IMG/VR virus record: IMGVR_UViG_3300028832_000101
Span: 49,380-113,379 of that record
Length of the DNA stretch: 64,000 nt
Reading direction: 5' to 3' (one strand)
Origin: a virus
Lineage: Duplodnaviria > Heunggongvirae > Uroviricota > Caudoviricetes
Under the pieces are notes generated by a model. The model did not search any database. It was not told where the DNA came from and was given only the letters and a program-made list of their open reading frames with translations. Of the stretch, positions 1 through 64,000 are shown piece after piece (the stretch's first letter is position 1; the number at the start of each line of letters is the position of its first letter). A program made the position numbers and the translations under genes.

Positions 1-56
1 TTTGTTAATTAAATTTTATAATATTTTTTTATAATAATCAATTACTATTCTTTAAA

Positions 57-85
57 TTGACATTATTAAAAATTTTTGTTATAAT
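57..85 (+). promoter_or_regulatory. sigma70-like promoter TTGACA-N17-TATAAT upstream of first early gene
   Basis: ttgaca at 57-62, 17 nt spacer, tataat at 80-85. Confidence 0.5.
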
Positions 86-211
86 CGCGTGCGTTCCTTA
101 TTATATATATGTTTTTTATTAAAAAATATTATAATGTTGACAAAAGAAAATATTTATTTTAATTTATATATAAGATGATATTCATAAATATTTCTAAAAT
201 ATTATCTTTAT

Positions 212-240
212 TTGATAAAAAATTAAAAATATTATATAAT
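212..240 (+). promoter_or_regulatory. sigma70-like promoter TTGATA-N17-TATAAT
   Basis: ttgata 212-217, 17 nt spacer, tataat 235-240; a third weaker candidate (ttgaca 137-142) lies between. Confidence 0.5.
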
Positions 241-297
241 ATAAATATAAAATTATATATTGCAAAAAACTTTTGCTAGAGAGGAGAAGGGACAAGA

Positions 298-654
298 GTG
301 AATATACAACAAAGTAGATTTTTCTGTACAGAATGCGGGAGAGAAGGCGTCCCAATAATGAGACCTAAAGGGGCTCAAAGAGAATCTGGACATTTGAAAA
401 AATTGTATTGCATATATTGCCAAAAAGAAGTTAACCATGCGGAGATCCGAGAGAATGGAAATTATACCCTGGAAGATTTTCAACAAGAATTTAATCTAGG
501 AAGATTCAAAAATGGAGATAGAGAGGCAATTAGCGAATTGAGTGAATGCTCATGTGTACATTGTCCATTTAATGTTAATGGTCGTTGCTGGAATAGTAAT
601 AGAACAAATAACTGTGGACATAGAATAATAGAAAGAGATGATAATAATGAATAA
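298..654 (+). CDS. hypothetical Cys-rich zinc-ribbon protein (GTG start)
   Basis: ORF track; RBS gagaggagaaggg upstream; several CxxC pairs. Confidence 0.5.
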   Translation: MNIQQSRFFCTECGREGVPIMRPKGAQRESGHLKKLYCIYCQKEVNHAEIRENGNYTLEDFQQEFNLGRFKNGDREAISELSECSCVHCPFNVNGRCWNSNRTNNCGHRIIERDDNNE

Positions 655-1207
655 AATTTGGTTTACAAGCGATTTACACTTTGGACACGATAAAGAATTT
701 TTATATGGGCCTAGGGGTTTTAAGACAATAGGTGAACATGATAGAATGATTATCGCAAATTGGAATGAAATAGTTGCGCCAGATGATGAAGTATATATTT
801 TAGGAGATTTAATGCTTGGTAGCGATGAATATGGAATTAATTGTTTAAGTCATTTAAATGGAAAACTTCATATTATTTTTGGTAATCACGATGAATCTCA
901 TAGAAGAAGGTTATATTTTTTAGAATTAGAAAATGCTTCTTATCCAATTGCATTTGCAGAAAAACTAAAATATCAAAAATATGAATTTTTCTTATCACAT
1001 TATCCAACCTTAGTTCATCCTAAGTTAGATAATAAAAAGATATGGAACCTACATGGACATACACATTCTAAAGATAAATTCAGTGAATACCCTCATTGTT
1101 ATAATGTAGCCCTAGATGCTCATGACAATAGGCCAGTATCAATAGATGAAATCATTGAAGACATTAGAAATTTCAATAATAATAATATAAACAAGGAGGA
1201 AAACTAG
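638..1207 (+). CDS. calcineurin-like metallophosphoesterase
   Basis: motifs DLHFGH, GDL, GNHD. Confidence 0.7.
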   Translation: MIIMNKIWFTSDLHFGHDKEFLYGPRGFKTIGEHDRMIIANWNEIVAPDDEVYILGDLMLGSDEYGINCLSHLNGKLHIIFGNHDESHRRRLYFLELENASYPIAFAEKLKYQKYEFFLSHYPTLVHPKLDNKKIWNLHGHTHSKDKFSEYPHCYNVALDAHDNRPVSIDEIIEDIRNFNNNNINKEEN

Positions 1208-1208
1208 T

Positions 1209-1655
1209 ATGATAAAATGGACTTTAAAATATAGTTTTTATGACTCTATTTCTGGAGTATCAGAAGCACATATAAATACTAATTTAGGAACTTTTAAAGG
1301 TAAAGCATTTTTACATGAAGAAGATGAAGATATTGAATCAAAATTTCAAGGTTGTAAATATGCAGAAATGCGTGCTGTATCTAAATATGTTAGTGCATTA
1401 ATAAAAAATGCTCAAATAAAATATGATACTTTATTAAGTTTAACTAATGATTTTCAAAACATAAATATATATAGAGAAAATAAATATACTAAAATTTTAA
1501 AAAATAAATTAGATAATGCTTATAATAATCTTAAAAATTTAAAAGAATATAAACAAAATTTAGATAAGAATATTTATAAGATAATGTCTGGATACAGAGA
1601 AGAAGTTAATAGCTTTAGAAAAGAAATAAAAGAAAGACAAGAGCCAACTAATTAG
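1209..1655 (+). CDS. hypothetical protein
   Basis: ORF track, tight coupling to neighbours. Confidence 0.45.
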   Translation: MIKWTLKYSFYDSISGVSEAHINTNLGTFKGKAFLHEEDEDIESKFQGCKYAEMRAVSKYVSALIKNAQIKYDTLLSLTNDFQNINIYRENKYTKILKNKLDNAYNNLKNLKEYKQNLDKNIYKIMSGYREEVNSFRKEIKERQEPTN

Positions 1656-1684
1656 TAGTTGACTCTCTTTCTAGTTAGGAGCTG

Positions 1685-2218
1685 ATGAAAATGAATAGAA
1701 AAATAATTAAACTATATACTGATGGGGCATGTAGCGGAAATCCTGGCATAGGTGGTTGGAGTTGTGTTAACTATGATGCTAAGAATAATACTATATGGGA
1801 TGCATATACAGGTCAAGATGATTGGGATAAACCTGAAACCACTAATAATAGAATGGAATTAAAAGGATTAATACAAGCATTAAAACTAGCCACTACAAAA
1901 TATAAAGATTGTGATGTTCTTATATATTGTGATAGTTCATATGTAGTTAATACTTTTAATGAATGGATTAGAACCTGGGCCCGCAATAACTGGATTAATA
2001 GTTCAAAAGAACAAGTTAAAAATTTAGATTTAATGAAACAAATATATGATTATGCTATTGTTGAATTTCCAAATTATGGAGTATATAAAGTAGCAGGTCA
2101 TAATAATGAAATAGGAAATGAATTAGCAGATGCTTATGCTGTTGCGGCAAAAAATAGTGATGCAACAAAATTAGCCAAAATTTTAAAAGAAAATAATATT
2201 ACTCTAGCCATAGAGTAA
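1685..2218 (+). CDS. ribonuclease H
   Basis: YTDGACSGNPGIGGW, NNRMELKGLIQAL and DSSYVVN motifs typical of RNase HI. Confidence 0.75.
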   Translation: MKMNRKIIKLYTDGACSGNPGIGGWSCVNYDAKNNTIWDAYTGQDDWDKPETTNNRMELKGLIQALKLATTKYKDCDVLIYCDSSYVVNTFNEWIRTWARNNWINSSKEQVKNLDLMKQIYDYAIVEFPNYGVYKVAGHNNEIGNELADAYAVAAKNSDATKLAKILKENNITLAIE

Positions 2219-2222
2219 TTTT

Positions 2223-2251
2223 TTGATTTTAGAGGAAAATTTTGATATAAT
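2223..2251 (+). promoter_or_regulatory. promoter TTGATT-N17-TATAAT with extended -10 TG
   Basis: ttgatt 2223-2228, tataat 2246-2251. Confidence 0.5.
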
Positions 2252-2284
2252 ATATATGATAAAACTTTAGGAAGGAGAAAAGAA

Positions 2285-4204
2285 ATGACTGATAAAAACA
2301 CTTATACAGAAACATCGATTGAATCATTGTCACCTCTTGAATTTACTCGTCTTAAACCAGGAGTATATGCTGGTGATACAACTTATTCAACTCAATTATT
2401 AGTTGAAATTGTATCTAATGCTGTTGATGAATTCAGATTAGGACATGGTTCTACGATTGATGTAACTATTATCAATAAAGATAAAGATACATTAATAAAA
2501 GTTAGAGATTATGGTCAAGGATTTATTCCTAATTCTTTTAGGGATGATGGTAAGACTATACTTGAAGCTGCATTTAGTGTACTTAATACATCTGGTAAAT
2601 ATCGTGAAGATGGTACTTATCAAGGAACATCATTAGGTTCTTTTGGTATTGGTTCAAAAATTACAACATTCTTATCACATTATCTAGAAGTAACAACTTA
2701 TAGAGATGGTAAGTATGAATACATTAAATTTGATGAAGGTGAATTTAAAGAAAGAAAAGAAGGAACATATACTGATAAAACTCTAACAGGTACAGAAGTT
2801 ATATGGACTCCAAGTGAACAATTCTTTACTCACACATCAGTAGAAGAATCTAAGATAAAAGATTTATTTAATACTATTACTTGTCTATGTCCTGGATTAA
2901 CTATCAATTTAGATATAGATGGACAAAAAATTAAATATATATCTGAAAATGGTATTAATGATTTAGTTGATGAAGCAGTAAGAGGAAAAGAAATTATCAC
3001 TAATAGATTTAACTTAAAATATGAAGAAGGAAAAGAAAAATTAGATATGGTATTAACATATACATCTAATTATTCTTTAAATTTAATTCCTTATGTTAAC
3101 ACAGGTTTAACAGAAAAAGGACCTCATATTACACAAGTTAAAACAGTTATCACAAGAGAATTTAATAAATTCTTTAAAGATAAGAAATGGCTAAAAGATA
3201 AAGAAGAAAATTTAACAGGTGATGATATCCAAGAAGGTATGTATATAGTATTTAACTTAACAGCCTCTAATGTGGCATATGATGCACAAGTTAAATCAAC
3301 AGTAACAAAATTAGATATGAGTAATTTTGCTAATGTTATTGCTACAAATCTTCAATATTGGTTAGCTAATAATGAAAAAGAAATTAAAGTAATCTTTGAT
3401 AAAGCGGCAGCAGCTCGTAAAGCAAGAGAAGCCGCAAAATCTGCAAGAGAAAGAGTTAGAGAAAATAATAAGAAAAAAGAAAAGGCTCTTAAATTTGATA
3501 GTAAATTAGCAGATTGTTATTCAAAAGATAGAAGTAAATGTGAAATATATATTACAGAGGGTGATTCAGCTTCTGGAAACTTAAAGTCAGCTAGAAATAA
3601 TGAGTTCCAAGCGGTAATGCCTATTCGTGGTAAAATATTAAACACACAAAAAGCAAGTTTAGATAAAATACAAAAGAATGCAGAAATTATGACAATGATT
3701 GATGCTTTTGGATTATATATTGATACTAAAACTATGCAAGTTACTTATAATAAAGATAGTTTAAGATATGGTAAAATTATAATTGAATCAGATGCCGATG
3801 TTGATGGCGCCCATATTAAGAACTTATTCTATACTTTTATATGGAACTTCTGTCCTCAATTAATTGAAGATGGATATGTATATGCAGGTGTTCCACCATT
3901 ATATAAAGTTACAATAGGAAAAGAATATAAATATATTAAAAATGATGAAGAACTAGAAGCATTTAAAAAGACAATAGGCGATAAAAAAATAACTGTTAAT
4001 CGTATGAAAGGTTTAGGCGAAATGTCTGTTGACGAAACAGAAGAAACATTAACCGATCCTGATAATAGAATTATCAAACAAATAACAGTTGAAGATGCGG
4101 AAGCCGCAGATAAATTATTTAATGATTTAATGGGTACTGGTGTTGTCGCAAGAAAAGATTTTATAAAAGAACATAGTAAGGAGGCTACATATAATGCAGA
4201 ATAA
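2285..4204 (+). CDS. type IIA topoisomerase ATPase subunit (GyrB/ParE/T4 gp39-like)
   Basis: GHKL ATPase N-terminus; EGDSASGNLKSARN...QAVMPIRGKILNTQKA toprim motif. Confidence 0.85.
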   Translation: MTDKNTYTETSIESLSPLEFTRLKPGVYAGDTTYSTQLLVEIVSNAVDEFRLGHGSTIDVTIINKDKDTLIKVRDYGQGFIPNSFRDDGKTILEAAFSVLNTSGKYREDGTYQGTSLGSFGIGSKITTFLSHYLEVTTYRDGKYEYIKFDEGEFKERKEGTYTDKTLTGTEVIWTPSEQFFTHTSVEESKIKDLFNTITCLCPGLTINLDIDGQKIKYISENGINDLVDEAVRGKEIITNRFNLKYEEGKEKLDMVLTYTSNYSLNLIPYVNTGLTEKGPHITQVKTVITREFNKFFKDKKWLKDKEENLTGDDIQEGMYIVFNLTASNVAYDAQVKSTVTKLDMSNFANVIATNLQYWLANNEKEIKVIFDKAAAARKAREAAKSARERVRENNKKKEKALKFDSKLADCYSKDRSKCEIYITEGDSASGNLKSARNNEFQAVMPIRGKILNTQKASLDKIQKNAEIMTMIDAFGLYIDTKTMQVTYNKDSLRYGKIIIESDADVDGAHIKNLFYTFIWNFCPQLIEDGYVYAGVPPLYKVTIGKEYKYIKNDEELEAFKKTIGDKKITVNRMKGLGEMSVDETEETLTDPDNRIIKQITVEDAEAADKLFNDLMGTGVVARKDFIKEHSKEATYNAE

Positions 4205-6515
4205 TGATATTTTAAATGAGTTAAGTACAAACTTTATTGAATATGCTGTTGCGGTTAACACAGATCGTGCTATTCCAGATGCAACTTCTGGGTTAAAACC
4301 AGTAGCCCGTAGATTACTATGGGGAGCTTTTGAAAGAGGCTATACATCAAGTAAACCTCATGTTAAGTCTGCAAAAATAGTTGGAGATGTAATGGGTACT
4401 TACCATCCACATGGTGATTCATCTATTTATGGAGCTCTTGTAAGATTATCTCAACCTTGGGTTATGAGATACCCACTTATAGATTGGCATGGTTCTAATG
4501 GTAATATTGATGGCGATGGTCCTGCAGCGATGCGTTATACAGAATCTAGACTATCAAAATTAGCAGAAGATGGTATGTTAAAAGGAATTAAGAAAAGAAA
4601 TGTAGATTTTATTCCTAACTACTCTGAAGACTGTGAAGAACCAGTTACATTACCTGCTATATTCCCTAACTTATTATGTAATCCAAACACTGGTATTGGT
4701 GTAGCTATGGCTTGTAATTTTGCTCCACATAATTTATGTGAAGTAGCTCAAGCTATATATGATTACATTGATGGTAAAGAACCTATGTTACCAGGTCCAG
4801 ATTTTCCAACAGGTGGATTAATTATTAATATGAATGATATTCCAAATATTATGAAAACAGGACATGGTAGTGTAAAAGTTAGAGCTAAATATAATGTAGA
4901 AAAACAAAATATAGTATATTATGAAATTCCATATGGAACTTCTACTGAAGCACTTATTGCGGAAATCGGTGAAGTAGCTGAAAATGATATTCCTGATATT
5001 ATAAATATTAGAAATGAAAGTAATAAAAAAGGTTTAAGAATTGTTGTTGAGTGCGCAAAAGGAGCTAATCCAGATGCAATAGCAGGTAAATTATTTGCAA
5101 AAACTAATTTACAAAGTAGTTTTTCATATAATCAAGTTGCTTTAATAAATAAAACTCCAACAGAAGTTAACTTAAAAGATTGTATTAAATTATATTTAGA
5201 CCATAATGTAAATTGTTTAATTAAGGAAACTGAATTTGATTTACATGCTGCGGAAGCCCGCCTTGAAATTGTTGAAGGTTTATTAAGAGCATTAGAAGAT
5301 ATTGATAATATTATTGCATTTATTAAAAAATCTGAATCTAGTGCTGCCGCAAAAGAAGGTTTAATTAAAGAATATAAATTTACTGAACCTCAAGCTAAGT
5401 CTATTGTAGCTATGAGATTAGGTTCTCTTGCTAAATTAGAAAAAGTAGAATTAAATGAAGAAAAAAATGGTTTAGTAAAAGATATAGAAGAATTTAATAA
5501 AATTTTATCTTCTAATGAATTACAAGTTAATATAATAAAAGAAAGATTAGAAGAATTAGTTAAAAAATATGGTGATAAAAGAAGAACTGAATTAGCTCAA
5601 ATTGAAATCCCAAAAGAAGATAAAGAAATTGTTGCAGTAATTCCTGAAGATGTTGTTGTAATGGTATCTCAAACAGGTGATGTTAAGCGTATTCCTAAAT
5701 CTAACTTCAGAGCGCAAAGAAGAGGCGGAAAAGGAATTAAGTCAGAGGAAGAAGCAATTTTAACTACAATTAAAACTAATACTATTGATAATTTATTAGT
5801 ATTTACTAATAAAGGAAAAATGTATAAAATATTAGTAGATAAACTTCCTGTTGGAACAAATGCTTCAAAAGGACAAAATGTTGCTAGTTTAGTTACTATG
5901 GATACAGATGAGAAAGTAATAGCCGCTGCAAGTTTAGATAGAGATACTGATGCTGAATATGTAGTATTTGTGACTAAACAAGGTCTATTTAAGAAAACAT
6001 TGCTAAGTGAATATAAGAGTATTAAAAAATCTACTGGAACTCAAGCGATTAAATTAAAAGATGGCGACAGTATATCTAATGTAGTGTTTATGAAAGATGA
6101 AGAATTTATGATATTTACTAAATTAGGTATGGCTATTAGATTTACTACTACTGATATTAATCCAATAGGTAGAGTAACTAGTGGAGTAAAAGGTATTAAC
6201 TTAATTGATGGAGACGAAGTTATAAGTAGTTTTGCTATTACTGATAAGAGTAAAAATATAGCAATTATAGGTAAAAATGGTTATGGAAAGAAAAGTAGTT
6301 TAGATGAGTTCTCTTCTCAAGGTCGAGGAGGTAAAGGACTTAAACTTGGATCTGAAATAGCTGGTGCCGCATTAATAAATGATGAAGATAATTTATTATT
6401 ATTAGGTAAACCTAATAGTATATGTATATCATGTGCGGAAATGCCTGTTCAAGGTAGAGCTACTCTAGGTGTTAAGCTAGCACAAAACGAAATTAAAAAT
6501 GTTGTTATTGTGTAA
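4194..6515 (+). CDS. type IIA topoisomerase DNA breakage-reunion subunit (GyrA/ParC-like)
   Basis: 773 aa; GyrA-like N-terminal region (VARRLLWGAFERG), immediately follows B subunit with 4-codon overlap. Confidence 0.85.
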   Translation: MQNNDILNELSTNFIEYAVAVNTDRAIPDATSGLKPVARRLLWGAFERGYTSSKPHVKSAKIVGDVMGTYHPHGDSSIYGALVRLSQPWVMRYPLIDWHGSNGNIDGDGPAAMRYTESRLSKLAEDGMLKGIKKRNVDFIPNYSEDCEEPVTLPAIFPNLLCNPNTGIGVAMACNFAPHNLCEVAQAIYDYIDGKEPMLPGPDFPTGGLIINMNDIPNIMKTGHGSVKVRAKYNVEKQNIVYYEIPYGTSTEALIAEIGEVAENDIPDIINIRNESNKKGLRIVVECAKGANPDAIAGKLFAKTNLQSSFSYNQVALINKTPTEVNLKDCIKLYLDHNVNCLIKETEFDLHAAEARLEIVEGLLRALEDIDNIIAFIKKSESSAAAKEGLIKEYKFTEPQAKSIVAMRLGSLAKLEKVELNEEKNGLVKDIEEFNKILSSNELQVNIIKERLEELVKKYGDKRRTELAQIEIPKEDKEIVAVIPEDVVVMVSQTGDVKRIPKSNFRAQRRGGKGIKSEEEAILTTIKTNTIDNLLVFTNKGKMYKILVDKLPVGTNASKGQNVASLVTMDTDEKVIAAASLDRDTDAEYVVFVTKQGLFKKTLLSEYKSIKKSTGTQAIKLKDGDSISNVVFMKDEEFMIFTKLGMAIRFTTTDINPIGRVTSGVKGINLIDGDEVISSFAITDKSKNIAIIGKNGYGKKSSLDEFSSQGRGGKGLKLGSEIAGAALINDEDNLLLLGKPNSICISCAEMPVQGRATLGVKLAQNEIKNVVIV

Positions 6516-6611
6516 CAACATTTTTTTATTGCGATTTTAAATTTGAAAATAAAAAAAAATTATTATATAATATATATAGAAAAAATAAAAGGAAAGGAGG
6601 AATTATGTATG

Positions 6612-8531
6612 ATAGATAATAATTTAAGTGAAATAAGACAATTAATAGATAAATTAAATTATTATACTAAATTATATGATGAAGGTCATCCTGAGATTTC
6701 TGATATAGAATGGGATAATTTATATTTTAAATTACAAAAATTAGAAAATCAATATCATACATATTGTGAAGATAGTCCTACTCAAAAAGTTAATTTTCAA
6801 GTAGTAAATAAACTAAATAAAGTAGAACATAATCACCCTATGCTTTCTTTGGATAAAACAAAAGATATGGATGTAATTAAATCTTTTATAGCAGGAAAAG
6901 AATTTATATGTATGGCAAAAATGGACGGGTTGACTTGTTCATTAACATATCAAAATGGACAACTAGTTGCCGCAGAAACTCGCGGAAATGGAATTGTCGG
7001 AGAAGATATTTTACATAATGCTTTACAAGTAAAAAACATTCCTAATAAAATTGATTTTAAAGATAAATTAGTTGTAGATGGAGAAATAATATGCACATAT
7101 AGTGATTTTGAACCATTTGCAGAAGAATATAAAAATCCTAGAAATTTTGCATCTGGTAGTATAAGATTATTAGATAGTAAAGAAAGTTCTAATAGAAGAT
7201 TATCTTTTGTTGCTTGGGATTGTATTGAAGGATATAATGATAAATATTACTTAAGCACAAAATTAGCGTGGTTAAATCTATTAGGATTTACTATCGTCCC
7301 TTGTTTTGCTTATGGTATTCCATATACCACAGTTCATTTTGATGAAGATATAGAAGAATTAAAAAATAGAAGTAAAAGATTAGGGTATCCAATAGATGGC
7401 TTAGTATTTAAATATGATAATTGTGATGAATATAATACCGCAGGTAGAACTGACCATCATTTTAAAGGCGGAATAGCATATAAATTTTATGATGAAGAAT
7501 ATGAAACAACTCTTCAAGATATAGAATGGAGTATTGGAAGAACAGGAATTCTTACTCCTGTTGCTATATTTGACCCTGTGGATATAGATGGAACTGAAGT
7601 TTCAAGAGCAAGTTTACATAATGTAAGTGTTATGACAGAAATATTAGGACAACCTTACAAAGGACAAAAGATAAAAGTATTTAAAGCAAATATGATTATT
7701 CCTCAAATCTCTTGGGCTGAAATTAAACCACTTACTATATCTACATTCAGATGTGAAAAATGTCCATTATGTGGAGAAAGAACCGTTCTTAAAAATAATG
7801 ATGGAGTTATGACATTATATTGTAGTAATCCAGATTGCGAAGGAAAGTTAATAAACCGTTTAGACCACTTTTGTGGTAAAAAAGGTTTAGATATAAAAGG
7901 GCTCTCAAAGGCAACTCTCGAGAAACTTATTGACTGGAGTTGGATTTCTAGTTATATGGATATATATAATTTAGAAAACTTCTCAAACGAATGGAAAAAC
8001 AAAACTGGCTTTGGTGAAAAATCAGTAGAGAGGATCTTGAGCGCCCTTGAACAAAGTAAAAATACAACATTAGATAAAGTAATTGCGGCAGCAGGTATTC
8101 CATTAATTGGAACGAGAGTCGCAAAAGATTTATCTCAATACTATTCTTCATGGGAAGACTTTAGAAAAGAAACAAATTTTGAGAAATATGATGGTATTGG
8201 ACCTGAAATGAATAACTCATTATTAAACTTTGATTATACTGAAATAGATAAAGTAATTCCTTATTTGAATATATCTGCAACAAATAATAATAAAGACAAT
8301 ACATTGCAAGATAAAGTTTTTTGTATAACAGGCAAATTACATATATGGAAGAATAGAGATGAATTAATTAAAAGTATTGAATCTATGGGCGGAAGAGTAG
8401 TAGGCTCTATGAGTAGTAAAGTTGACTATTTAGTTAATAATGATATTAATTCAACTTCTGCAAAAAATAATGCGGCTAAACAAGCAGGTATTCCAATTAT
8501 AACAGAAGAAGAATTGCAATCTATGATTTAA
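6612..8531 (+). CDS. ligA: NAD-dependent DNA ligase
   Basis: LigA adenylation region, four-Cys zinc finger (CEKCPLCG...CSNPDC), HhH and BRCT-like C-terminus; ATG at 6612 with RBS aaggaaaggagg (track start 6543 is an in-frame extension). Confidence 0.8.
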   Translation: MDNNLSEIRQLIDKLNYYTKLYDEGHPEISDIEWDNLYFKLQKLENQYHTYCEDSPTQKVNFQVVNKLNKVEHNHPMLSLDKTKDMDVIKSFIAGKEFICMAKMDGLTCSLTYQNGQLVAAETRGNGIVGEDILHNALQVKNIPNKIDFKDKLVVDGEIICTYSDFEPFAEEYKNPRNFASGSIRLLDSKESSNRRLSFVAWDCIEGYNDKYYLSTKLAWLNLLGFTIVPCFAYGIPYTTVHFDEDIEELKNRSKRLGYPIDGLVFKYDNCDEYNTAGRTDHHFKGGIAYKFYDEEYETTLQDIEWSIGRTGILTPVAIFDPVDIDGTEVSRASLHNVSVMTEILGQPYKGQKIKVFKANMIIPQISWAEIKPLTISTFRCEKCPLCGERTVLKNNDGVMTLYCSNPDCEGKLINRLDHFCGKKGLDIKGLSKATLEKLIDWSWISSYMDIYNLENFSNEWKNKTGFGEKSVERILSALEQSKNTTLDKVIAAAGIPLIGTRVAKDLSQYYSSWEDFRKETNFEKYDGIGPEMNNSLLNFDYTEIDKVIPYLNISATNNNKDNTLQDKVFCITGKLHIWKNRDELIKSIESMGGRVVGSMSSKVDYLVNNDINSTSAKNNAAKQAGIPIITEEELQSMI

Positions 8532-8570
8532 TACTTTGATGTTTTAAAAATTTTCGTATATAATATAAAT

Positions 8571-8768
8571 ATGAAAGATAAAGAAAAAAAGAAAAAAATT
8601 AAATCAATAGCTCAACAAATTTCACAATTGGAAAATAAGTGTCGTATAGATTCGGTTAACCAACTTAAGTATATGGCAGAAATGCAACAATTAATTGAAA
8701 ATCTTTCATTAGAAGAGTTATTGGAGATTGATGAATATATAATTGAAAGCAAATGTTTGAAAAAATAA
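8571..8768 (+). CDS. hypothetical small protein
   Basis: ORF track, own promoter-like TATAAT upstream. Confidence 0.4.
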   Translation: MKDKEKKKKIKSIAQQISQLENKCRIDSVNQLKYMAEMQQLIENLSLEELLEIDEYIIESKCLKK

Positions 8769-8830
8769 AAATTTTTAGTTATAATATTCATATAAAATAA
8801 AATAAGAAAAAAGAAGAGGAGAAAAAGATT

Positions 8831-9097: not shown

Positions 9098-9117
9098 TTT
9101 TAAATAAACAGGAGAAG

Positions 9118-9150
9118 GAGTTGGGCATAGCTCAACTTCTTTTTAATTAG
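9118..9150 (+). terminator. intrinsic terminator hairpin agttgggcatagctcaact + T-run
   Basis: inverted repeat followed by tctttttaatt. Confidence 0.5.
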
Positions 9151-54484: not shown

Positions 54485-55276
54485 CTATGCTGTCCTTTTC
54501 CACATGTATACTCCGATACATGGTTGTAAGTTTCCTGAAGTTCCAGCTCCAGTAGATCCAGAAGTTCCTGTAAAAGTATGAGTGTGCGCAAAAGTATGAG
54601 TATGTGCTTCTATTGAATGTGTATGAGCACTTCCATGACTATGACTTGCGCTATGATGGTGACTGTATGAATGTCCATGATTTGCACTATGTGAGTGTCC
54701 CATCGCATATCTTATTTTTCTCCAAGAGTTACTTGATGTACCACTTGTTTTAAATTGATGGTAATCCGCAAAAGTAAACCAAATTCTTGAAGAACTATGT
54801 GAACCTTTTTGCGAACAGAAAAATCTTGTTGGAGAAGCAGCATCACCAGCTAATTCAGTACTACTTGTTGCTGAACTGTTTCCTGATGATGTACTTGAAT
54901 TTCCAGTATGTTCAGTCGTAGAACTTGAATTAAATGCATCTTTATTTGCTATTCCCATATCACCTGTGAGTGTCTCTGCAGCAGCCTCACTTGAAGTTGC
55001 AGAAATACTATGAGTATGGTCTTGTATATCTAAGGAACCGCCTTGTTCATTTGCGGCAATAGTTTTTGTTTTACTTTGCCCATCAGTTCCAGTCCCAACT
55101 CCCATTAATACTCTTCCAGTACTAAATACTTCTCAAGTACCACCAAAAATATCTCCTGGATTAGTTGAATTAGTTGATATATAAATAGAACCAATAGGAT
55201 AAATACTATCTACGAAATGCGCTTTTCCCGCAATTCTTAAATCTCCTTTTACTATTAAATCTTTAAAAAATGCCAT
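54485..55276 (-). CDS. His-rich collar-domain tail protein paralog 2 (263 aa)
   Basis: MAFFKDLIVKGD...YPIGSIYISTNSTNPGDIFGGT; GHSHSANHGHSYSHHHSASHSHGSAHTHSIEAHTHTFAHTHT; ends LQPCIGVYMWKRTA. Confidence 0.65.
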
Positions 55277-55292
55277 ATAAACCCCCTCTTTC

Positions 55293-56123
55293 CTAAGCCG
55301 TTCTCTTCCACATATATACACCTTGATAAGGTTGTAAATTATTTGCTGTGGTTTGGTATGTAATTGAAGGATGACCTGTAGAGCCTGAAATGGTATGACT
55401 ATGCGCGGCAATAGTATGGCTATGAGAGAATGTATGACTATGTGCAGCAACACTATGTGTATGTTCAGGAATTCTATGGTAATGACTAGGTACTGTATGA
55501 GAATGGGAAGGTAAACTATGATTATGAGACATATTAATATGCATATTTGCCCAACCATTTGTTGATGAACCACTGTCTTTAAATCTTCGATTACTACTCC
55601 ACTTAACAGCCGCTCTATCTCCACTGTTACTATAATAACACATATTATTACTTAAGTTATTTTGATGAGTCATGAAGATATTTCTTTGGTGGTCACCACT
55701 ATTACCACCTGCTCCAGACCAATTACCTGTTCCACCTGAAGTTCCGCCAGTATTCCCACTAGTTCCTCCACCAGTTAAGCCTTCAGTATTATCACCTGTA
55801 TTACCTGTCGTAGTTGAAGTAGTTGTATTATTTGCGGAAGTCATTGCCGCAAAACTATGAGTGTGTGTACCTATATTATAACTACCCCCTGTTGTTCCTC
55901 CAGTAAATGTTTTTGTAACACTATCTTTATCTGTATAACTACCTGCACCGATCAAAGAACGACCTTGTCCAAATGCTTCTCAAGTTCCTCCAAAAAGTTG
56001 ACTTGGATTTGTAGAGGCAGTAGACATATATATAGAACCTATTGGATACATACTTTCCAAAACGTTTATTTTTCCTATAAATCTGGCGTCTCCGCTGACA
56101 AATAAATCTTTTAAAATCGCCAT
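55293..56123 (-). CDS. His-rich collar-domain tail protein paralog 3 (276 aa)
   Basis: MAILKDLFVSGD...YPIGSIYMSTASTNP; HNHSLPSHSHTVPSHYHRIPEHTHSVAAHSHTFSHSHTIAAHSHT; ends LQPYQGVYMWKRTA. Confidence 0.65.
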
Positions 56124-56149
56124 ATCCTTCTACCTCCTTTTAATGAATT

Positions 56150-56212
56150 TCATATCCATTAAATATTATAAAAAATTGATTAAAATTGTTATTTATATTT
56201 GCCCAAATAAAA
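56150..56212 (-). promoter_or_regulatory. degenerate copy 4 of bipartite late-promoter-like motif
   Basis: box A TTTATTTGGGCAAATAT and diverged box B at the same 46 nt register. Confidence 0.4.
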
Positions 56213-56235
56213 AAAGATAGGCATAAGCCTATCTA
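56205..56235 (-). terminator. intrinsic terminator agataggcataagcctatct + T-run (minus strand)
   Basis: contains stop of gene 56229-56663. Confidence 0.55.
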
Positions 56236-56663
56236 GGAATCATACTAAAGTAATAATATACTTTATCTTCTTTTGCATCTTCATCACAAATAAAATCTTT
56301 ACTGAATTTAGCATAATATTCTACATTATCATTAAATAAATCATTGTAATCATTATAAGCACTATTCATTACGATTCAAAAGTCAACAGGTCTAATATTC
56401 TCATAATTATATTGTTTTCTTACTCCTTCAGTATCTTCAAGAGTTCATTTCATTCCATAAGGTTTCATATTTTCAATTAAACCTTTTGCTATTTCTTCGT
56501 TTAACACTTTGCCTTCAGACATTTCATATAATTTTCTTTCAATTTCTTCTTTATCAATAGCATTAGAATGCTCAATGATATGAGATATAAAATTAATTAA
56601 TTCATCTTTCTTATCATTATTATCTGAAGACATTATTTTACTGACATATTTTTTTATTTCCAC
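56229..56663 (-). CDS. hypothetical 144 aa protein (GTG start)
   Basis: track ORF 56445-56663 continues through TGA to TAG at 56229; RBS aggagg. Confidence 0.5.
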
Positions 56664-56675
56664 AATAGCCTCCTA

Positions 56676-57239
56676 TTATATTGATGTATAAGGACATTGA
56701 TAATAACAAGGAGGATTTAATACATATCTACCTTGTAAATTTAAAATTGAGTCAGTTGAGTTTTGAATAGCGGCAGTGATTGCTGCAGTTTGATTTGCGT
56801 TAGATAAAGCATCTCTAGTTGTTTGTAATTTATCACTTATTTCTCTAATATAGTTATCTTGGATCATTTGTCTAGTAGCATTTCCTTCTTGAGCAACTAG
56901 GTTGCCAATTGCGGCGATACTATTACTTAATTGTAATGACATATCTTTCATACTTACTAAATTATTATAAGCAGAGTTTAATACAGTATCAGTAATTCCA
57001 CATTGTCCTTGAGCTAATCCTCTGATTGCATTATCTTGAGATTGGAAATATAAGCTATTTTGTAAATCGCTTTGACCTAAAGCAGTTGCACTATTTCCCC
57101 AGAATCCTCCATTTCCACCAAATAATAAGATGAAAACGATAATTAATGCTAAAATACCATTTCCTCCAAATAATCCGTCTCCGCTACCTTTAGTTAATGC
57201 TAACACATCAGCAGCTGACATTCCTGTACTTTCATTCAT
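56676..57239 (-). CDS. Gly-rich membrane protein, 187 aa
   Basis: hydrophobic ILALIIVFILLFGG; RBS ggaagggga. Confidence 0.55.
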   Translation of the reverse strand: MNESTGMSAADVLALTKGSGDGLFGGNGILALIIVFILLFGGNGGFWGNSATALGQSDLQNSLYFQSQDNAIRGLAQGQCGITDTVLNSAYNNLVSMKDMSLQLSNSIAAIGNLVAQEGNATRQMIQDNYIREISDKLQTTRDALSNANQTAAITAAIQNSTDSILNLQGRYVLNPPCYYQCPYTSI

Positions 57240-57294
57240 TTTTCTTTCCCCTTCCTAAATATTATTTATTTATATATAATAAAAAGTTAGTTTC

Positions 57295-57519
57295 CTAACC
57301 TTTATTACCATTAATTAATCTAATCATTTGCGCAAGTTGTTCTTTACTTATTCCGCGTTCATTACACATCTTAGCGATAGCTTCCGCCTGTTCATTATTA
57401 GGTCTATTATTAATATTGTTAAAAAGTTGTAACTGTTGCGGATTTAGTAGACTTAACAACGCTTGTTGTGGTTGATTTGACATCATCACTTGCGACATTA
57501 GACTTTGTAGATTGACCAT
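57295..57519 (-). CDS. Gln-rich small protein, 74 aa
   Basis: RBS ggagggg; overlaps 3' end of next ORF. Confidence 0.45.
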   Translation of the reverse strand: MVNLQSLMSQVMMSNQPQQALLSLLNPQQLQLFNNINNRPNNEQAEAIAKMCNERGISKEQLAQMIRLINGNKG

Positions 57520-57877
57520 TTATAATCCCCTCCAACTCTTTCACTTTTGTTTCTAATTCTTCTATTTTTAAATCCTTTTCATCTTTAGGAATAATAATAT
57601 CATAACTTTTACTTATTGTTCCATCAACTTCTTTAATAGATATTTTCCCTTTATGTTCATCTATAAATAAAGTTTTTTTAGTAATAAGAATATTATTTAT
57701 ATCATCATCTTTTGTTAGATATTTTATTTCAATATCAGAAGAACTAGATGTATTAATGATATTTTGAACTGGAGCTTGTTGATTCATCAATCCTTGACTA
57801 TATTGATTTATCATATTTTCAATATTATCTTTTTGTCGATATAATTGATTAATCATTCCATTATAATTATAAGGCAT
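57419..57877 (-). CDS. hypothetical 152 aa protein with coiled-coil C-terminus
   Basis: RBS ggaagggga. Confidence 0.5.
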   Translation of the reverse strand: MPYNYNGMINQLYRQKDNIENMINQYSQGLMNQQAPVQNIINTSSSSDIEIKYLTKDDDINNILITKKTLFIDEHKGKISIKEVDGTISKSYDIIIPKDEKDLKIEELETKVKELEGIINGQSTKSNVASDDVKSTTTSVVKSTKSATVTTF

Positions 57878-57906
57878 ATAAATTCAATCCCCTTCCTAAA
57901 AACAAA

Positions 57907-57951
57907 AAACCGCACAGTAGAAGTTAACGAATTAATCTACTGTGCGGTTTA
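57907..57951 (-). terminator. strong intrinsic terminator accgcacagtaga...tctactgtgcggt + TTTTTTGTTTTT on minus strand
   Basis: 13 bp GC-containing stem; sits inside the leader of gene 57419-57877. Confidence 0.65.
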
Positions 57952-57955
57952 ATTT

Positions 57956-58020
57956 ATTTTCAATCCATTTCCAAGAGTAAAATCAATCCTTTTCCTTTGA
58001 AGTAAATTAATTCAATCCCT
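57956..58020. repeat. three direct repeats of TCAATCC(n)TT(T)CC spaced about 24-25 nt
   Basis: tcaatccatttcc, aatcaatccttttcc, attcaatccctctc. Confidence 0.5.
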
Positions 58021-58161
58021 CTCTAATTCGAGATTAAGAGAAAAAGATACATCAGAAATTCTTTCTTCTTTTCCCTTACATGTATATATGAATTTTAGCT
58101 TAGCCAAATTATAAAGATTGTCCCAAAGTTGTAAAAATTTTTGCTAAAATTTCATAGCTTA

Positions 58162-58809
58162 TTAAATTTCAATAAAATCATTAGCAACAATATCTTGATT
58201 TTGAAAAATTTTTGCTTTATCTGTAATAGATAAACTATCATTATCTATACGAAGATATACATCTAAATAACCTGTTGTAACAACAGCTTGGTTATATGCA
58301 GGAATCCCGCCATTATGTCTTGCAGAAGCCCCAAAAGCACCTCACCAATTTCCTTCAGTACCATTATTACAACAAATATAAGTATTTGCACTAGCTACTT
58401 TATATGCTCCTCCATAATTTGATGATGGTGTCGTATATCCTGTAGTTGTTATGAAAGTAATATTAGCTGGAGCAACATTACTATAAGTTGCTATATTAGG
58501 ATTATAATTTTGAACCCATCTAAATTTAGATTCATTTGCAGTATCAGTTGTTTTTTCTTTTACTAATATTTCTCATTTAGTAGCACTATCAAATAAATTA
58601 AATTGTGCCCATCTATTCGTATCTTTATATACTCCATTTGCAAAACTATCTGAATTAGAGAAAATATAAGATGCAGGATTATTATGATGCAATACTTGAA
58701 TTCATATAGAACCATCTGGTTCAGTAATAATTACTGGATTAATAGCAGTTTGAAAAGAATAATTATTCATATAATTATTATTCCATATTCCATTTTTATA
58801 TACACTCAT
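58162..58809 (-). CDS. hypothetical 215 aa structural protein, possibly lectin-like
   Basis: full manual translation; RBS aaggagg; CCNNGTEGNWWGAFG segment. Confidence 0.55.
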
Positions 58810-58811
58810 AA

Positions 58812-60590
58812 TTATTCCTCCTTAAATTCATATGCATACATATTATTTGCGTTATCTACAAAACCGGCAGTGTCATATAATTGTTTTACATCTGCGGCAG
58901 ATAATGCAGTTGCATATATACGGAAGTCAGATAAACTACCATAATTTTTTGTATTTCAGCCTGTTCCTGTATAAGTGTTTCCAATTGAATTATTTAATAA
59001 TGGAATAGTAGTATCTGTATAAGTATTTTTTGTTAAAGTTTGTTCAACTCCATTTAAATATCATTTTGCCGTTCCTTTATTAAATACATATACTGCATGA
59101 TATCAAGTTCCTGCTGTTAATAATGAACCTCCTGCAGTATATTTACTTCTATAAGCTCATAATCCACAACCTTCACAATTTGTTGCTATTCATAAACCAG
59201 CCCCGGCAGGATTGTTATAAGGAGACATTATGCAACAATAACCACCATTTGAAGCATTGGGTTTTACTCAAAAAGAAATAGTTAATTCAGCCATATCAGG
59301 TATAGATAAATCAGTTTTTAAACCATCAATTCCTGTTGCACAGCTACTTCCCCCATTATATCTTGGTGCGGTAGAGTCAAAATTCAACGTTCCAACTTTT
59401 GTAGCATTATATCCATTTCCGCTTACATCAGTAAGTATCATATTATCAAAACCTAATTTAGAATACATAACATCACTTGAATTTGGTATTCAATCTGTTG
59501 CAACCTCTCCAATTTCAATTTTAGGATGTCTATACTTTATTGTTCCAGTAGTATCTCTCATAAAGAAACTTACATTTAAACCAGCTATATCATAATTTGT
59601 AACAGTTACAGTACAACTATATTTTACTCATCCAGTTGTAACTGCTGTAGGGATAGTTTTTCCGCCATATCAATCTAATCACTGATTGCTTCCCCCTGTT
59701 GTAGTATTTCTTGTAACAGACAGTTCAAAACCAACTCAAGGATTTGTAGTACCAAAGGTAAGTGCTTCTGTAATTTTATATTCCATAGAAAAAGTCAATT
59801 TTTTATTTTTAAAATCAGTTAATCCTGCAGTATCCATTGTTTGTGAAAAACTTATTCCAGATGCTTGAAGAGTATCAGAATGAAAAGTTACTTCATCTCC
59901 ATCAAAAGTATAAATTCCTGCATTAGTTTTATTAGACCAATCACTATTTTTAATATAATTTTTACCAGCTCCCATCTCCTCCAATTTATAATGACAAACC
60001 AATCCCTTTGAAATTTCTTTTATTTGTTTACGAGATAGGCATTCATCATATACACGTAAATCATTCATTACTCCTGTAATGATATTATTATTTTCTCCTA
60101 TATGAAAATCGGTAATTAAATACCCGCCTAATCCAGTATCTGTGTATAATAGACTTCCATCTACATAGGTGTAGAGATTTGCACCATTATAACTTACACA
60201 ACAATGATGTCAAGTTCCTTTTTGGCTTTCTTCAATTAATACTCTTGTCGCCTGCGTAACCCCAAAAGGTGAATTATTATGAAAACTACATGCTCTTGTA
60301 GATTGTGTTGCTTCAAATCTAAATTGAGCAGCAGCAGTTCCATCTGCTTGTTTACAAGTAAATCCAAGAGAATCGGCTCAATCTGATGTACAGCTATCTA
60401 CTTTTAATCAAAAACATATTGTGAAATTATCTAACCTAGATAAATTAGTAAAAGTAATTCTAGGAGATAAACTTAAACCCTTTCCGATTTTTCCTCCATT
60501 AGAATATGTAGGAGTTCCTGATACTGATAAAAAATCTATACCTTGATTTTTTAAGTTACCATTAAGAGGCAACCATACTCGTAAAGCCAT
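58812..60590 (-). CDS. tandem LamG/concanavalin-A-like lectin domain protein, about 592 aa
   Basis: MALRVWLPLNGN..., MNDLRVYDECLSRKQIKEI and C-terminal LSDFRIYATALSAADVKQLY are LamG hallmark motifs; track ORFs 59736-60068 and 60408-60590 joined by TGA. Confidence 0.6.
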
Positions 60591-60601
60591 ATGATTACCT
60601 C

Positions 60602-63600
60602 CTAACTAAAGATAAATTCAATACATTTATCTGTTGAATTATATTGAACTGTTGCGGCAGATGTTAATCCAATCTTACCATTTCCAGTTGTTATTTTATT
60701 TGGGAAACTTGTATTTCCACTTGCGTCTAATAATGTAGCAGTTCTGGTTATTGTAGCAAAAACACCACTATATTGTCTAACATAAATAGGTTCATTACTA
60801 TCGTCTGCAGTAGCAATTTCTAACCAACCTGCATTAGCGGCAGTTGCTCCTGCGGCAATTCTACCATAATCATTATCCCCAGCTTTAAATTGAACTTGTC
60901 TAGTGCTTGTTCCACTATTGGCAAATAGTAAATCACCTGTCATAGTGTCTCCAGCTTTTAATACATAATCACTACCGCCACCTCCGCCAGTAGGAGCATA
61001 AATTTTTGTAGATGTGCCATTAATCTTAATAGTACCTATTTCAGTTCCTTCTGTTAAAGTTTGAGTAAATGAAGTAGTACCTGTATTTAAAATTGTTCCA
61101 CCTGTTGTTGGGAATGTATGAGTAGATTCAGCAGTGGCAGACGCTGTTGCTTTTACTGTCGCAAATCCAGCCTTTTCTGCATATATTCTAATTTCGCCAT
61201 ATTTATTTCCTGCAGTTTCTGTCGCAGTAGCATTTCCTAAAGAAAGAATTGATCTACCTGCAGCACTTGCAGTACCTTGTAAAGAATAATATCTTAAACC
61301 ATCATTAGCATTAACTCCATTGGTACCAGATGTAGCTGTATACCATGTAGGGTAATACCAAGTACCTGTTGTTGGATTAGTATTTGAAATAGTTACTTTA
61401 TTATTAGTATCTGTATAAACTCTTGTAGTCCAATTTCCCCAAGTTCCATTAGTACAATATCTTACATAAGAATTGTTTGGGTTATTTGCATTTGTAAAAA
61501 TTTGTCTTGTTATATAATCTGAAGTACTAGCTCATCTAATTACATCAACATCTAATAAGAAAGGTTTACCTGTAACCGGGATATTAGTTATATTATTAGA
61601 GCCCCCATCAGTTTTTTCAATATAATGCATACTATTAGGACTTCCCGCAGATAAGTTTAAAGTATTAATATCTAAAGTTTGACTTGAAATATCAATTCTA
61701 TCATAACCTTTTGCATAGAAAGCTCCTGTACTTGGATTTGCAGTAAAATTAACTGATTTATTTGAACCAGCAGTTTCAGTAGTATCATTAGCTGAATTAG
61801 ATAATAATAATCTATAAGCTGAAGCTGTTGTACTATTTGTTTGAGTTACTTTATTATTTGTATCAGTATAACAACTACTAGGAATTGTTCCACTTAACTT
61901 TGTAGCATCTAGTGTACTACTAGCAGTTAATGGAGTAATTGTATTACTTCCAAGAGTAATAACCCCACTAGCAATTTTCGCATCTGTAATTCCATAACCA
62001 CTTAAAGTTGTTGGATTAGTTCCCGCAGTAACGTGTCCTGTTGCATTAACAGTTACACTTCTATATGTTCCCGCGGTTACACCTGAATTGGCATGTGATA
62101 AAGTTCTAGTTCCACTAGTTGTAATTGCGGAAGTACTATCAATAGCAATAGGTGAAGTCGCTTTAATTGTGACACTCGTTACAGTTCCACTAGGTTCATC
62201 ACCTGAAGGAATTAATACCCAAGTATTAGCACTTGAAGTTTTTGAATCACATACAAATGTATCTCCAATTTTTGCAGCTTGGCTTGCATAAGTACCTGCA
62301 GTGATAACTTTATAAGTATCACCAACTGATGCACTACCATCAACAGGTAATGCAGTAATAGTACCATTTGTACCTAAACTACCTTTAAATACCATTGGAT
62401 CTGGTAAATTATCAATAGCAGTTTGAACAAAGGCAGTTGTTGCAATTTGTGTGGTATTTGTTCCTGCAGTAGCTGTTGGTGCAGTAGGAATACCATTAGA
62501 AATTCCAATTGCTTCTTTATATGTATTACTTACTGTATTACCTAAACTTAATTTAGCATTTGCATCATCAGTAGTACTGAATGTTGTAACACCAACATCT
62601 GCAGTAGTTGCCGAATAATCTACTTTAAATCCATCTGTAGAACCTGTTACTGTAAATAAATTTGTACTAGCTATTGTTCCACTTGAAGCAAGAGCACGAG
62701 TAATAGCACCTGTCATTGCTCCACCAGATTTTTTAAGATAAGTAGAATTAATTGCATTCCCATCACTATCATTAGTAGCTTTACCTGCACTAGTCGCATA
62801 AGGGACTGTAATTGATTGTGCATTTCCACTACTTGGCGTTAAAGTTATTTTATTATTAGTTGTATCTGCAGCTAAAGTATAAGTAGTATTATTATCTGTT
62901 CATGGAATATTAACTGATAATTTTCCATTTTTATCTAATCCTACTGCATATTGTTTATTTGCAGTAGAACCCATATCTACGGCTTCAAGAGTAGATTTAG
63001 TCTCACTCTTTAAATTTGCTTTAATTGTACCTGTTGTAGTAACATCTCCACCTGTTAAACCTGCTCCAGTAGAAACTTTAGTTACAGTACCTGTATTAGT
63101 TGTATAACCTTTACCTTCAACAAAAGAAGCAACCGCTTGAGATGTAGGTAAATTAGTACTTGTACTAGCTGCGGAAATTGAAGTATCTACAGCTTTAGCA
63201 CTTGCAGCCGCTAAAGTATATCCATTATAAGTTTTATTTGTTAATGCTTGTGTATCACTTAAATTAACAACTTGTTTACTATTACTATAAACATGTCCAT
63301 CAGTTCCAACATAAGCAGTATCTTGTGAATAAGTTTGTGGATTAGCTGCTTGAGATTTGGCTCCTACGATAAAAATTTTATCTGAAGTATCTGTTGAACC
63401 TGCAGTATTTTTTGTATCACTATTATTATCAGTAGAATGACTCATCCAAACCCAATATGTACCATCATACATATAATAAAGAATTCTGTTCGCATAACCA
63501 TAAGCAGTTGTATTAGTGCCTGTATTTCCAGCTCCACTATGAGTATTATTATACCAAATATTTTTAGCTCCTGTACTATTTACATTTAATGTTATAGGAC

Positions 63601-64000
63601 TATCAGTTGTAGAACTATAAGTGTTTGTATTTGTAAATTTAACTCCTACAATAGTACCTTTAGCTAATTCCCAACCTGTTGTATCTGCTAAAGTAACTTC
63701 TTTATTTCTTGTATCTGCAGCAGTACTACAAATACCATAGAATGCTCTACGATTGTTTGTATCGCTTCCAGGAATTCCTAAAGCAGTGATATCCGCTTTT
63801 GCAACAGCAGTAACTGACTTAATATGTCCTTCTGCAGTTGTTGCAATTTTATATAATCCGCTATCTGCGGCAGTTGTTAATCTATTACTATCAGTTGCAT
63901 GAGTATAGGCAGTATTTCCATAATCACCTCTATAAGCAGTTGTAGATGAAGTTCCTAAAGCTAAATTACTTGTTCCTGCACCTATATTAGTACGGGCATT
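60602..64000 (-). CDS. giant Thr/Ser/Gly/Asn-rich tail fibre protein, at least 1133 aa, 5' end beyond window
   Basis: track ORFs 60602-60943, 61532-62716, 62900-63472 one frame joined by TGA; C-terminal YVLKAGDTMTGDLLF tail-fibre repeat motif; stop TAG 60602-04 inside RBS of next gene. Confidence 0.5.

Follow-up and report, generated by a model that had tools for sequence, protein, structure and literature searches.

TGA as a tryptophan codon in part of a probable SPbeta-like phage genome, and a phage tRNA(UCA) with an extra arm

Stop-codon recoding in phages was reportedly the subject of earlier work by Ivanova et al. in 2014. The closest described systems are alternatively coded gut phages, among them the 'Agate' phages (Borges et al., doi 10.1101/2021.08.26.457843), whose AT-rich genomes of more than 100 kb read TGA as tryptophan (Trp), combine standard-code replication machinery with recoded structural genes and have lost TGA as a stop; they carry a phage suppressor tRNA, have close relatives in the standard code and preferentially recode a tail protein. 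We analysed a 64,000-nucleotide (nt) stretch of a Caudoviricetes genome (IMG/VR record IMGVR_UViG_3300028832_000101, positions 49,380 to 113,379; hereafter the window) that is alike in all of these respects. The shared features are not clade-defining, and the Agate genome measures ~127 kb compared with 136,118 and 137,249 bp for the two contigs that match the window. Two differences were found: a 96-nt five-arm suppressor tRNA, which is not described in Borges et al., and the recoding here of nrdD, nrdG and glycosyltransferase genes on the 'early' strand as well. Early/late TGA recoding is already known in phages, and the present finding is correct and not new in kind; any novelty may lie in how the suppressor tRNA is built, which is the main point of interest. 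Very probably the window covers roughly one half of the ~136 kb genome of an SPbeta-like phage, probably of the Agate type, that infects a standard-code Bacillota host and reads TGA as Trp.

The nearest cultured relatives were SPbeta-like phages of Bacillus subtilis and Enterococcus phages (VRE9, EF1/EF5, H1; ~134-142 kb). Genome size was similar, and the DNA polymerase III alpha subunit (PolIII-alpha, YorL) aligned with theirs over its full length at 39% identity. YorF, YorH and AAA_24 were also present in the window, and YomW and YomU in a relative. Unlike the window, these phages use the standard code throughout, and DNA likeness was limited: a megablast search of the window against 50,697 phage records returned a single 95-nt match at ~84%.

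Mycoplasma and Spiroplasma (code 4) also read TGA as Trp and carry a tRNA(UCA) gene beside tRNA-Trp(CCA); their tRNA-Trp(UCA) is of ordinary length. In these bacteria TGA is used genome-wide and release factor 2 (RF2) is absent, whereas here 28 genes excluded TGA and the tRNA has a fifth arm. The Jade 'code-change module', comprising tRNA(UCA), a tryptophanyl-tRNA synthetase (TrpRS) and release factor 1 (RF1) (Borges et al.), is similar in its phage tRNA(UCA), its change of TGA to Trp and its Firmicutes host, and the AP1/HF2 TrpRS pairs (PMC12636597) belong to the same comparison. In contrast to the Jade module, the 72 kb covered here yielded neither a TrpRS nor an RF1; an extra tRNA arm with CCA in its loop may make a dedicated synthetase unnecessary.

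Meaning and distribution of in-frame TGA

Translation with table 11 fragmented the window into many short open reading frames (ORFs); with stops limited to TAA and TAG it yielded 60 closely packed genes. Those at 298 to 35718 lie on the plus strand; from 35836 up to the end of the window all are on the minus strand. The gene list was curated under code 4, and the blocks described below were counted from that list. Because ORFs were called with TAA/TAG stops, the lack of a TGA stop in genes outside the 28 TGA-free ones is by construction.

In its evolutionary meaning TGA is Trp: glycine (Gly), selenocysteine (Sec) and serine (Ser) are excluded on comparative sequence grounds. The most recoded gene encodes a double Laminin_G_3 tail protein (58812..60590, minus strand; 14 TGA and 2 TGG) and was queried with X at each TGA codon, so that the alignment was not biased toward Trp. 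Among 44 full-length homologs, 7 of the 14 TGA columns were 82-100% Trp. Over all TGA columns, 54% of cells were Trp compared with a background of 2.2%, and 5% were Gly. Some database proteins had themselves been called with code 4, among them the ortholog at locus L018 (12 TGA and 3 TGG), whose gene does not translate under table 11; the check was therefore made against demonstrably standard-code homologs. Protein P0031, from a locus of 14 genes (L019) with no in-frame TGA and one gene stopping on TGA, and GenBank protein P0047 both carried Trp at all seven near-invariant columns.

TGA codon 40 of NrdG likewise aligned to the Trp of CHNRDTW in E. coli PflA. That TGA is a sense codon was seen in the Pfam NRDD match (residues 120-769), which ran unbroken through TGA codon 258, and in matches to the NrdG, Stealth and GT1 domains that crossed TGA codons. 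In 80 related loci, 137 of 195 in-frame TGA codons in replication genes aligned with a TGG-encoded Trp of the window. The original prediction, made from the sequence alone, that TGA is read as Trp was therefore borne out by the standard-code homologs, by PflA and by the TGA/TGG exchanges. Its three examples also held: CHNPET-W is NrdG codon 40, PTG-W-LICDG is codon 37 of 47786..48430, and the TGA of VYI-W-NRTA in 53684..54472 stands where a paralog has TGG.

TGA density was not uniform. The window contained 82 in-frame TGA codons across 27 genes, and 28 genes in two blocks contained none: TGA accounted for 0 of 85 Trp codons in the TGA-free blocks compared with 82 of 179 (46%) elsewhere (Fisher p = 5e-18). 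In every one of the 28 genes the first stop of whatever kind was TAA or TAG. The larger block, the early/replication module (298..23649, plus strand), comprises 21 genes and 7,529 codons with 0 TGA and 74 TGG, and all of its stops are TAA or TAG, as had been predicted. Out of frame, TGA was frequent in the replication genes (96 in frame +1 and 459 in frame +2), which indicates that the in-frame lack of TGA is selective.

The extent of the recoding needed correction. The first TGA-free block was correctly recognized, but a second one (28691..32735, plus strand; 7 genes, 1,299 codons, 0 TGA and 11 TGG) had been missed. Recoding had been described as confined to late and glycosyltransferase genes: the early/late partition stood in the test above, but nrdD, nrdG and a RuvC-like gene were recoded too. 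Similarly, TGA had been called dense in every minus-strand structural gene. The late/structural module (35836..64000, minus strand; 22 genes, 9,048 codons) did contain 67 TGA and 68 TGG, with TGA in 18 genes, but the remaining four genes had no TGA. A 948-aa protein credited with about 9 TGA and 4 TGG had 8 and 7.

The base following sense TGA in the window was T in 11% of cases compared with 28% after TGG (p = 0.008), and A was enriched. In the related loci (L145-L224), T followed 16% of in-frame TGA and 22.5% of TGG. This depletion of T at position +4 may hint that sense TGA avoids the strong UGA-U termination context, where RF2 would compete.

A tRNA(UCA) with an extra arm

Within the window, ARAGORN and Rfam detected neither tRNAs nor any other RNA family. 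JGI contig L002 (136,118 bp), found via the RNase H protein, was identical to the window across 12,218 nt, which places its tRNA genes in the same genome. Left of the window, its minus strand carried small genes and 11 tRNAs including tRNA-Trp(CCA). The original prediction had called for a search of the rest of the genome for a tRNA with anticodon UCA, and one was found 7,123 nt left of window position 1 (96 nt; L002 1099-1194, minus strand; ARAGORN and the Rfam tRNA model).

This tRNA(UCA) has A1:U72, G73, an encoded CCA end and the anticodon loop CUUCAAA. An extra hairpin of 5-6 bp separates the anticodon arm from the T arm, and its loop, CUCCAAA, is identical in sequence to that of the anticodon arm in the neighbouring tRNA-Trp(CCA). 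Two features of bacterial tRNA-Trp, A1:U72 and G73, were present, but a CCA anticodon in a class I cloverleaf of ~76 nt was not: the anticodon is UCA, and within the interior of the molecule CCA is present only in the extra-arm loop. Long-arm UCA tRNAs are labelled 'SeC' by ARAGORN. The 8/5 or 9/4 acceptor/T arrangement and 6-bp D-stem of tRNA-Sec were not seen, the arrangement being 7/5 with a 4-bp D-stem. Class II tRNAs, tRNA-Sec and allo-tRNAs (Mukai et al. 2017, PMC5389517) are alike in combining a long extra arm between the anticodon and T arms with anticodon UCA and G73. The tRNA here is set apart from them by its 7/5 arrangement, its 4-bp D-stem and its A1:U72 first pair, and where they have a short variable loop, the extra-arm loop of the present design measures 7-9 nt and includes a conserved UCCAA.

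The arm recurred in many phage loci. A pattern requiring CTCCAAA matched 15 IMG/VR contigs of 39-135 kb, in which the stems varied and pairing was kept. With the arm unconstrained, a second pattern matched 70 IMG/VR loci; the same anticodon-arm and T-arm constraints with a normal short variable region matched only 24. Long-arm tRNA(UCA) occurred in L003-L017 and in many of L021-L075. The ~40 unique non-Sec sequences had highly divergent bodies; in nearly all of them the first pair was A:U or G·U, position 73 was G, and the loop of the extra hairpin was 7-9 nt long and contained UCCAA. Among the long-arm UCA tRNAs, A:U stood at 1:72 in 36 of 47 and G73 was present in 43 of 47, and none of the 15 Sec-type tRNAs of the same scan had a UCCAA extra-arm loop. 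RNAalifold, applied to 33 sequences, predicted the extra arm independently: the loop was at least 90% conserved, and four pairs showed compensatory changes in 17, 17, 9 and 4 sequences. No description of this arm was found in the literature searched.

At the level of sequence, the hairpin loop (C/G/U)UCCAA(A/C) reproduces U33-C34-C35-A36-A37 of tRNA-Trp. We hypothesize that the extra arm returns to TrpRS the CCA identity element that was lost by the C34-to-U change. Many phage opal-suppressor tRNAs, the present one among them, could then belong to an undescribed structural class, tRNA-Trp(UCA) with a fifth-arm loop N-U-C-C-A-A-N that imitates the anticodon loop of tRNA-Trp(CCA); we put this forward tentatively, as a serious possibility short of a probable one. 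Were the arm to act as an identity element, a tRNA that reads UGA could be charged by the host's own TrpRS in a standard-code cell by means of a cis-acting 'anticodon decoy', with no phage synthetase needed. This would answer how hosts that never use suppressors charge them, and it would offer genetic-code engineers a natural design of UGA-reading tRNAs. The long-arm architecture and its 'SeC' label could also help explain why a suppressor was detectable in only 35% of TGA-recoded genomes in tRNAscan-based surveys, where non-canonical tRNAs were suspected (Borges et al., doi 10.1101/2021.08.26.457843). Insertion of Trp by phage tRNA(UCA) has been shown for thirteen such tRNAs in an E. coli extract (PMC12636597).

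Other RNAs were seen in the tRNA clusters. Related phages had tmRNA genes inside theirs (L005, L008, L009, L015 and L016), and in two relatives a tRNA with the amber anticodon CUA lay beside the UCA tRNA (L012 138-214 and L014 3898-3974). An OLE-like RNA (Rfam RF01071) was found within the tRNA cluster of L002 (2748-2953, minus strand), at 118.6 bits compared with a gathering threshold of 50; its 206 nt matched only model positions 284-595, the 3' core, compared with ~600 nt for the complete OLE architecture, which goes with the protein partners OapA and OapB. OLE-like RNAs also scored 85-109 bits in the tRNA clusters of relatives (L007 5210-5602, L008 5822-6158, L010 5177-5380 and L012 5077-5348). 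No report of a phage-borne OLE RNA was found in the literature searched.

Code boundary, timing and host

PolIII-alpha relatives at 61-90% identity were found on at least 109 IMG/VR contigs. The state of the code was surveyed in the 80 IMG/VR loci around PolIII-alpha relatives (L145-L224) and formed a continuum. Many loci had zero in-frame TGA, the closest relatives (90% PolIII-alpha identity) had 8 TGA in replication genes, and in L160 and L161 TGA made up 38% of replication-gene Trp codons. In the TGA-bearing relatives, TGA was located in primase, RecJ, helicase and Pol III. L159, which is on the same contig as the long-arm tRNA carrier L008, had no TGA within 10 kb of PolIII-alpha. Across the relatives, the TGA fraction per gene rose from 1.7% in PolIII-alpha to 6% in DnaB, 20% in RecJ-like, 33% in NrdG and 60-89% in glycosyltransferases (GTs). 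The idea that replication genes are TGA-free throughout the family was therefore rejected: judged from the loci compared, a TGA-free replication module is a property of the present genome, not of the family. The window shows the TGA-free set unusually sharply, as two blocks each behind host-type promoters, and a code boundary that slides within one family makes the 80 relatives a good set in which to study how recoding extends across a genome.

The polymerase gene itself varied among these loci. The PolIII-alpha match spanned ~5 kb rather than 3.9 kb in L197, L198, L206, L208, L211, L212, L219, L220 and others, which points to insertions of ~1 kb of the intron, intein or homing-endonuclease type. 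In the Enterococcus phages EF1 and EF5, an HNH endonuclease occurs there.

Sigma-A-type promoters were arranged in accordance with the blocks. The divergent intergenic region at 1..297 has TTGACA-17-TATAAT at 57 and TTGATA-17-TATAAT at 212, directed toward the replication module. Further extended -10 promoters, near the consensus TTGACA-17-(TG)nTATAAT, lie on the plus strand at 8757, 10120, 12285, 17314 and 28629, the last directly 5' of the second TGA-free block. There were 17 sigma-A-like sites with at most one mismatch compared with 7.8 in shuffles, and the intergenic ones clustered before the TGA-free blocks; the recoded blocks had only two such sites, at 53308 and 58135 (minus strand). 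The tRNA arm left of the window also has host-type promoters. A repeated motif, ATTATATAATATTTATAAG, was considered as a late promoter and rejected, as it consists of the -10 region and flank in the tRNA arm. The early and late classes used here are putative ones, drawn from gene function and promoters, and the predicted promoter layout fits an order of host-translatable genes first and recoded genes later.

In the mechanism we propose, host RF2 would stop at UGA at the time of infection, and only the TGA-free genes, behind host-type sigma-A promoters, would be translatable. The phage tRNA(UCA) would accumulate, charged with Trp most likely by host TrpRS, and UGA would be read through; the nucleotide-metabolism, glycosyltransferase and virion genes would then become translatable. 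The partition would be at least a footprint of the products needed before the code switch, and it may also gate late genes, for timing or for safety. The original prediction had matched the partition to recoded phages of standard-code hosts, and this was supported: the pattern is as in Borges et al. (doi 10.1101/2021.08.26.457843).

The evidence on the host's own code was indirect but consistent, and suggests the standard code. Many of the 61-90% PolIII-alpha relatives lacked TGA which, given a shared host lineage, argues for a standard-code host, and the TGA-stopping gene of L019 was taken as a further sign. Left of the window, PHROGs identified a transglycosylase-family protein; Pfam was weak for both peptidoglycan-enzyme candidates there. 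The OLE RNA class is mostly reported from Bacillota (PMC12054373). The OLE-like RNA, the PHROG transglycosylase and the depletion of T after sense TGA are supporting hints of a standard-code host, with which the kinship to Bacillus and Enterococcus phages agrees. The cell-wall-binding-like repeats to which a walled host had first been tied did not hold up: the C-terminal repeats of 41152..42819 were without a Pfam match and showed only weak FN3 similarity.

A host that itself uses code 4, such as a Mollicute or another RF2-less lineage, would turn the early/late difference into an expression-linked codon preference. In its favour, the genome has a GC content of 28%, and DUF285, which takes its name from Mycoplasma, is matched by two tail proteins; Mollicutes also descend from Bacillota, so that SPbeta-like ancestry would be compatible with such a host. 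We nevertheless consider it very improbable, because TGA was not used in all gene classes (0 of 85 Trp codons in 28 genes compared with 46% elsewhere, p = 5e-18). No expression-linked bias of this strength is known among code-4 organisms; in those with AT-rich genomes, TGA is the dominant Trp codon. The many standard-code PolIII-alpha relatives at 61-90% identity, the phage's own tRNA(UCA) and tRNA-Trp(CCA), the encoded transglycosylase-family protein, the avoidance of UGA-U by sense TGA and the Bacillus and Enterococcus hosts of the nearest cultured relatives also speak against it. The probability is close to nil that TGA means Gly (code 25), Sec or, given the long-arm tRNA, Ser, or that it marks true stops in a decaying or misassembled element. 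The 'SeC' call of ARAGORN favours one of these meanings, and a long extra arm with G73, which resembles the SerRS identity set, another; however, the TGA columns were 54% Trp, with 7 of 14 at 82-100%, and 5% Gly, and TGA exchanged with TGG between relatives (137 of 195). A Sec-type tRNA does not have the 7/5 arrangement and 4-bp D-stem seen here, as the true Sec-type tRNAs of the same scan show, and 82 TGA in 27 genes are incompatible with insertion that depends on a selenocysteine insertion sequence (SECIS). Misassembly is countered by the agreement of the ENA and JGI assemblies (3 mismatches in 23,951 nt for ENA contig L001, 137,249 bp, and 0 in 12,218 nt for L002), and decay by domain matches that continue past TGA codons.

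A more serious alternative concerns the partition alone. TGA may have arisen from TGG by G-to-A drift wherever it was tolerated in an AT-rich genome, and genes translated ahead of effective suppression could not keep it; the partition would then be a passive footprint with no selected gate. This agrees with a family boundary that moves (0-38% of replication-gene Trp codons recoded, with 8 TGA in the closest relatives), with the gradient of TGA fraction from 1.7% in PolIII-alpha to 60-89% in GTs, and with a tRNA behind host-type promoters. It does not readily account for 58812..60590 and its L018 ortholog, in which 14 of 16 and 12 of 15 Trp codons were TGA, far above the ~45% of drift, or for the gene families that significantly prefer TGA in Borges et al. 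(doi 10.1101/2021.08.26.457843). We regard drift without selection as possible but rather doubtful. It is not mutually exclusive with a code switch in a standard-code host: the two differ only on whether the partition is adaptive.

Several points weigh against the preferred account, in which a standard-code host is infected by a phage that switches the code through its own tRNA(UCA). TGA in the replication genes of close relatives argues that a strict early/late gate is not conserved in the family, and the tRNA(UCA), lying behind host-type promoters, may be produced early. The enrichment of A at position +4 misfits a pure model of weak termination context. SerRS also recognises a long extra arm with G73, which makes mischarging with Ser conceivable, and the geometry by which the anticodon-binding domain of TrpRS would reach the variable-arm loop is hypothetical. 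The 72 kb in which no phage TrpRS or RF1 was found cover only part of the ~136 kb genome, and the other ~64 kb may encode these or a second tRNA(UCA) of conventional form. No CRISPR spacer match and no prophage junction linked the phage to a host, and the two DUF285 proteins, from the family named for Mycoplasma, are the sole pointer to Mollicutes. A scan of bacterial contigs with the tRNA pattern was uninformative as to host, with metagenome-assembled genome bins of several phyla. Matches in bacterial genomes also included true tRNA-Sec genes that contain TCCAA by chance.

Gene map and genome context

GC content across the window ranged from 26 to 38%, with a skew flip at ~36 kb that marks the coding-strand switch. 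No terminase was found in the window. Window position 1 is position 79,103 of L002 (136,118 bp), and the window would pass the contig end by ~7 kb, which indicates that it comes from a differently permuted assembly; a genome that is circular or terminally redundant would fit this. The whole ~136 kb sequence corresponds to JGI 3300037512 Ga0400026_0000021 or ENA ERZ27256849 k141_4501037; exact-protein searches with 62900..63472 and 638..1207 gave no match. The left arm of L002 had in-frame TGA in two genes and was otherwise TGA-free: a 273-aa gene of unknown function (6454-7275, minus strand) has three, and a transglycosylase-family gene (4923-5504, minus strand) has one, at codon 184 of 193.

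By Pfam, the replication module (298..23649) encodes RNase H, GyrB-like and GyrA/ParC-like proteins, NAD-ligase, DnaB, a RecJ-like DHH protein, a RecD-like helicase and Pol III alpha/YorL. GIY-YIG, YorF, AAA_24 and YorH were present as precomputed domain matches, and a primase-like protein is also encoded. The first recoded block on the plus strand (23686..28640; 6 genes, 1,636 codons, 6 TGA and 17 TGG) has TGA in five genes. NrdD (24572..26908) has it at codon 258, NrdG (26901..27392) at codons 40 and 106 and a Stealth-family transferase (27335..28345) at codon 88; a small ORF has an ambiguous TGA at codon 77 of 87, a guanylate kinase has none, and the sixth gene is a further small ORF. The second TGA-free block (28691..32735) contains peptide deformylase, DUF5662, three small ORFs, dUTPase and an SPFH/flotillin protein (31272-32735). 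In the second recoded plus-strand block (32813..35718; 4 genes, 956 codons, 9 TGA and 12 TGG) all four genes have TGA: an unknown 219-aa protein (3 TGA), a GT2 (4 TGA, 0 TGG), a GT1 (1 TGA) and a RuvC-like resolvase (1 TGA).

The minus-strand module encodes virion proteins, including baseplate and tail-fibre proteins, and the recoded relative L018 is syntenic with it. It contains two DUF285/BspA-LRR paralogs (44886..47786), the tail-collar protein (47786..48430), a GT2 (52176..53255), three tandem Gp10_C-like paralogs (53684..56123) and a fibre protein that extends past the window end (60602..64000). In the two Gp10_C-like paralogs that were read, long His-rich H-x-H repeats such as HTHSINGHTHSIDHTHTMVHNHSFNHSHTSSHTHT precede a conserved ...VY(I/M)W(N/K)RTA tail. 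These repeats may be metal-binding fibre motifs.

A set of genes with a possible role in surface glycans was distributed over the window: the Stealth transferase (27335-28345), a GT2 and a GT1 (32813-35148), a further GT2 (52176-53255) and the flotillin gene (31272-32735). All transferases in the window are recoded and the flotillin gene is not. The presence of the Stealth transferase, two GT2s, the GT1 and flotillin suggests that the phage modifies the surface glycan of the host or the virion.

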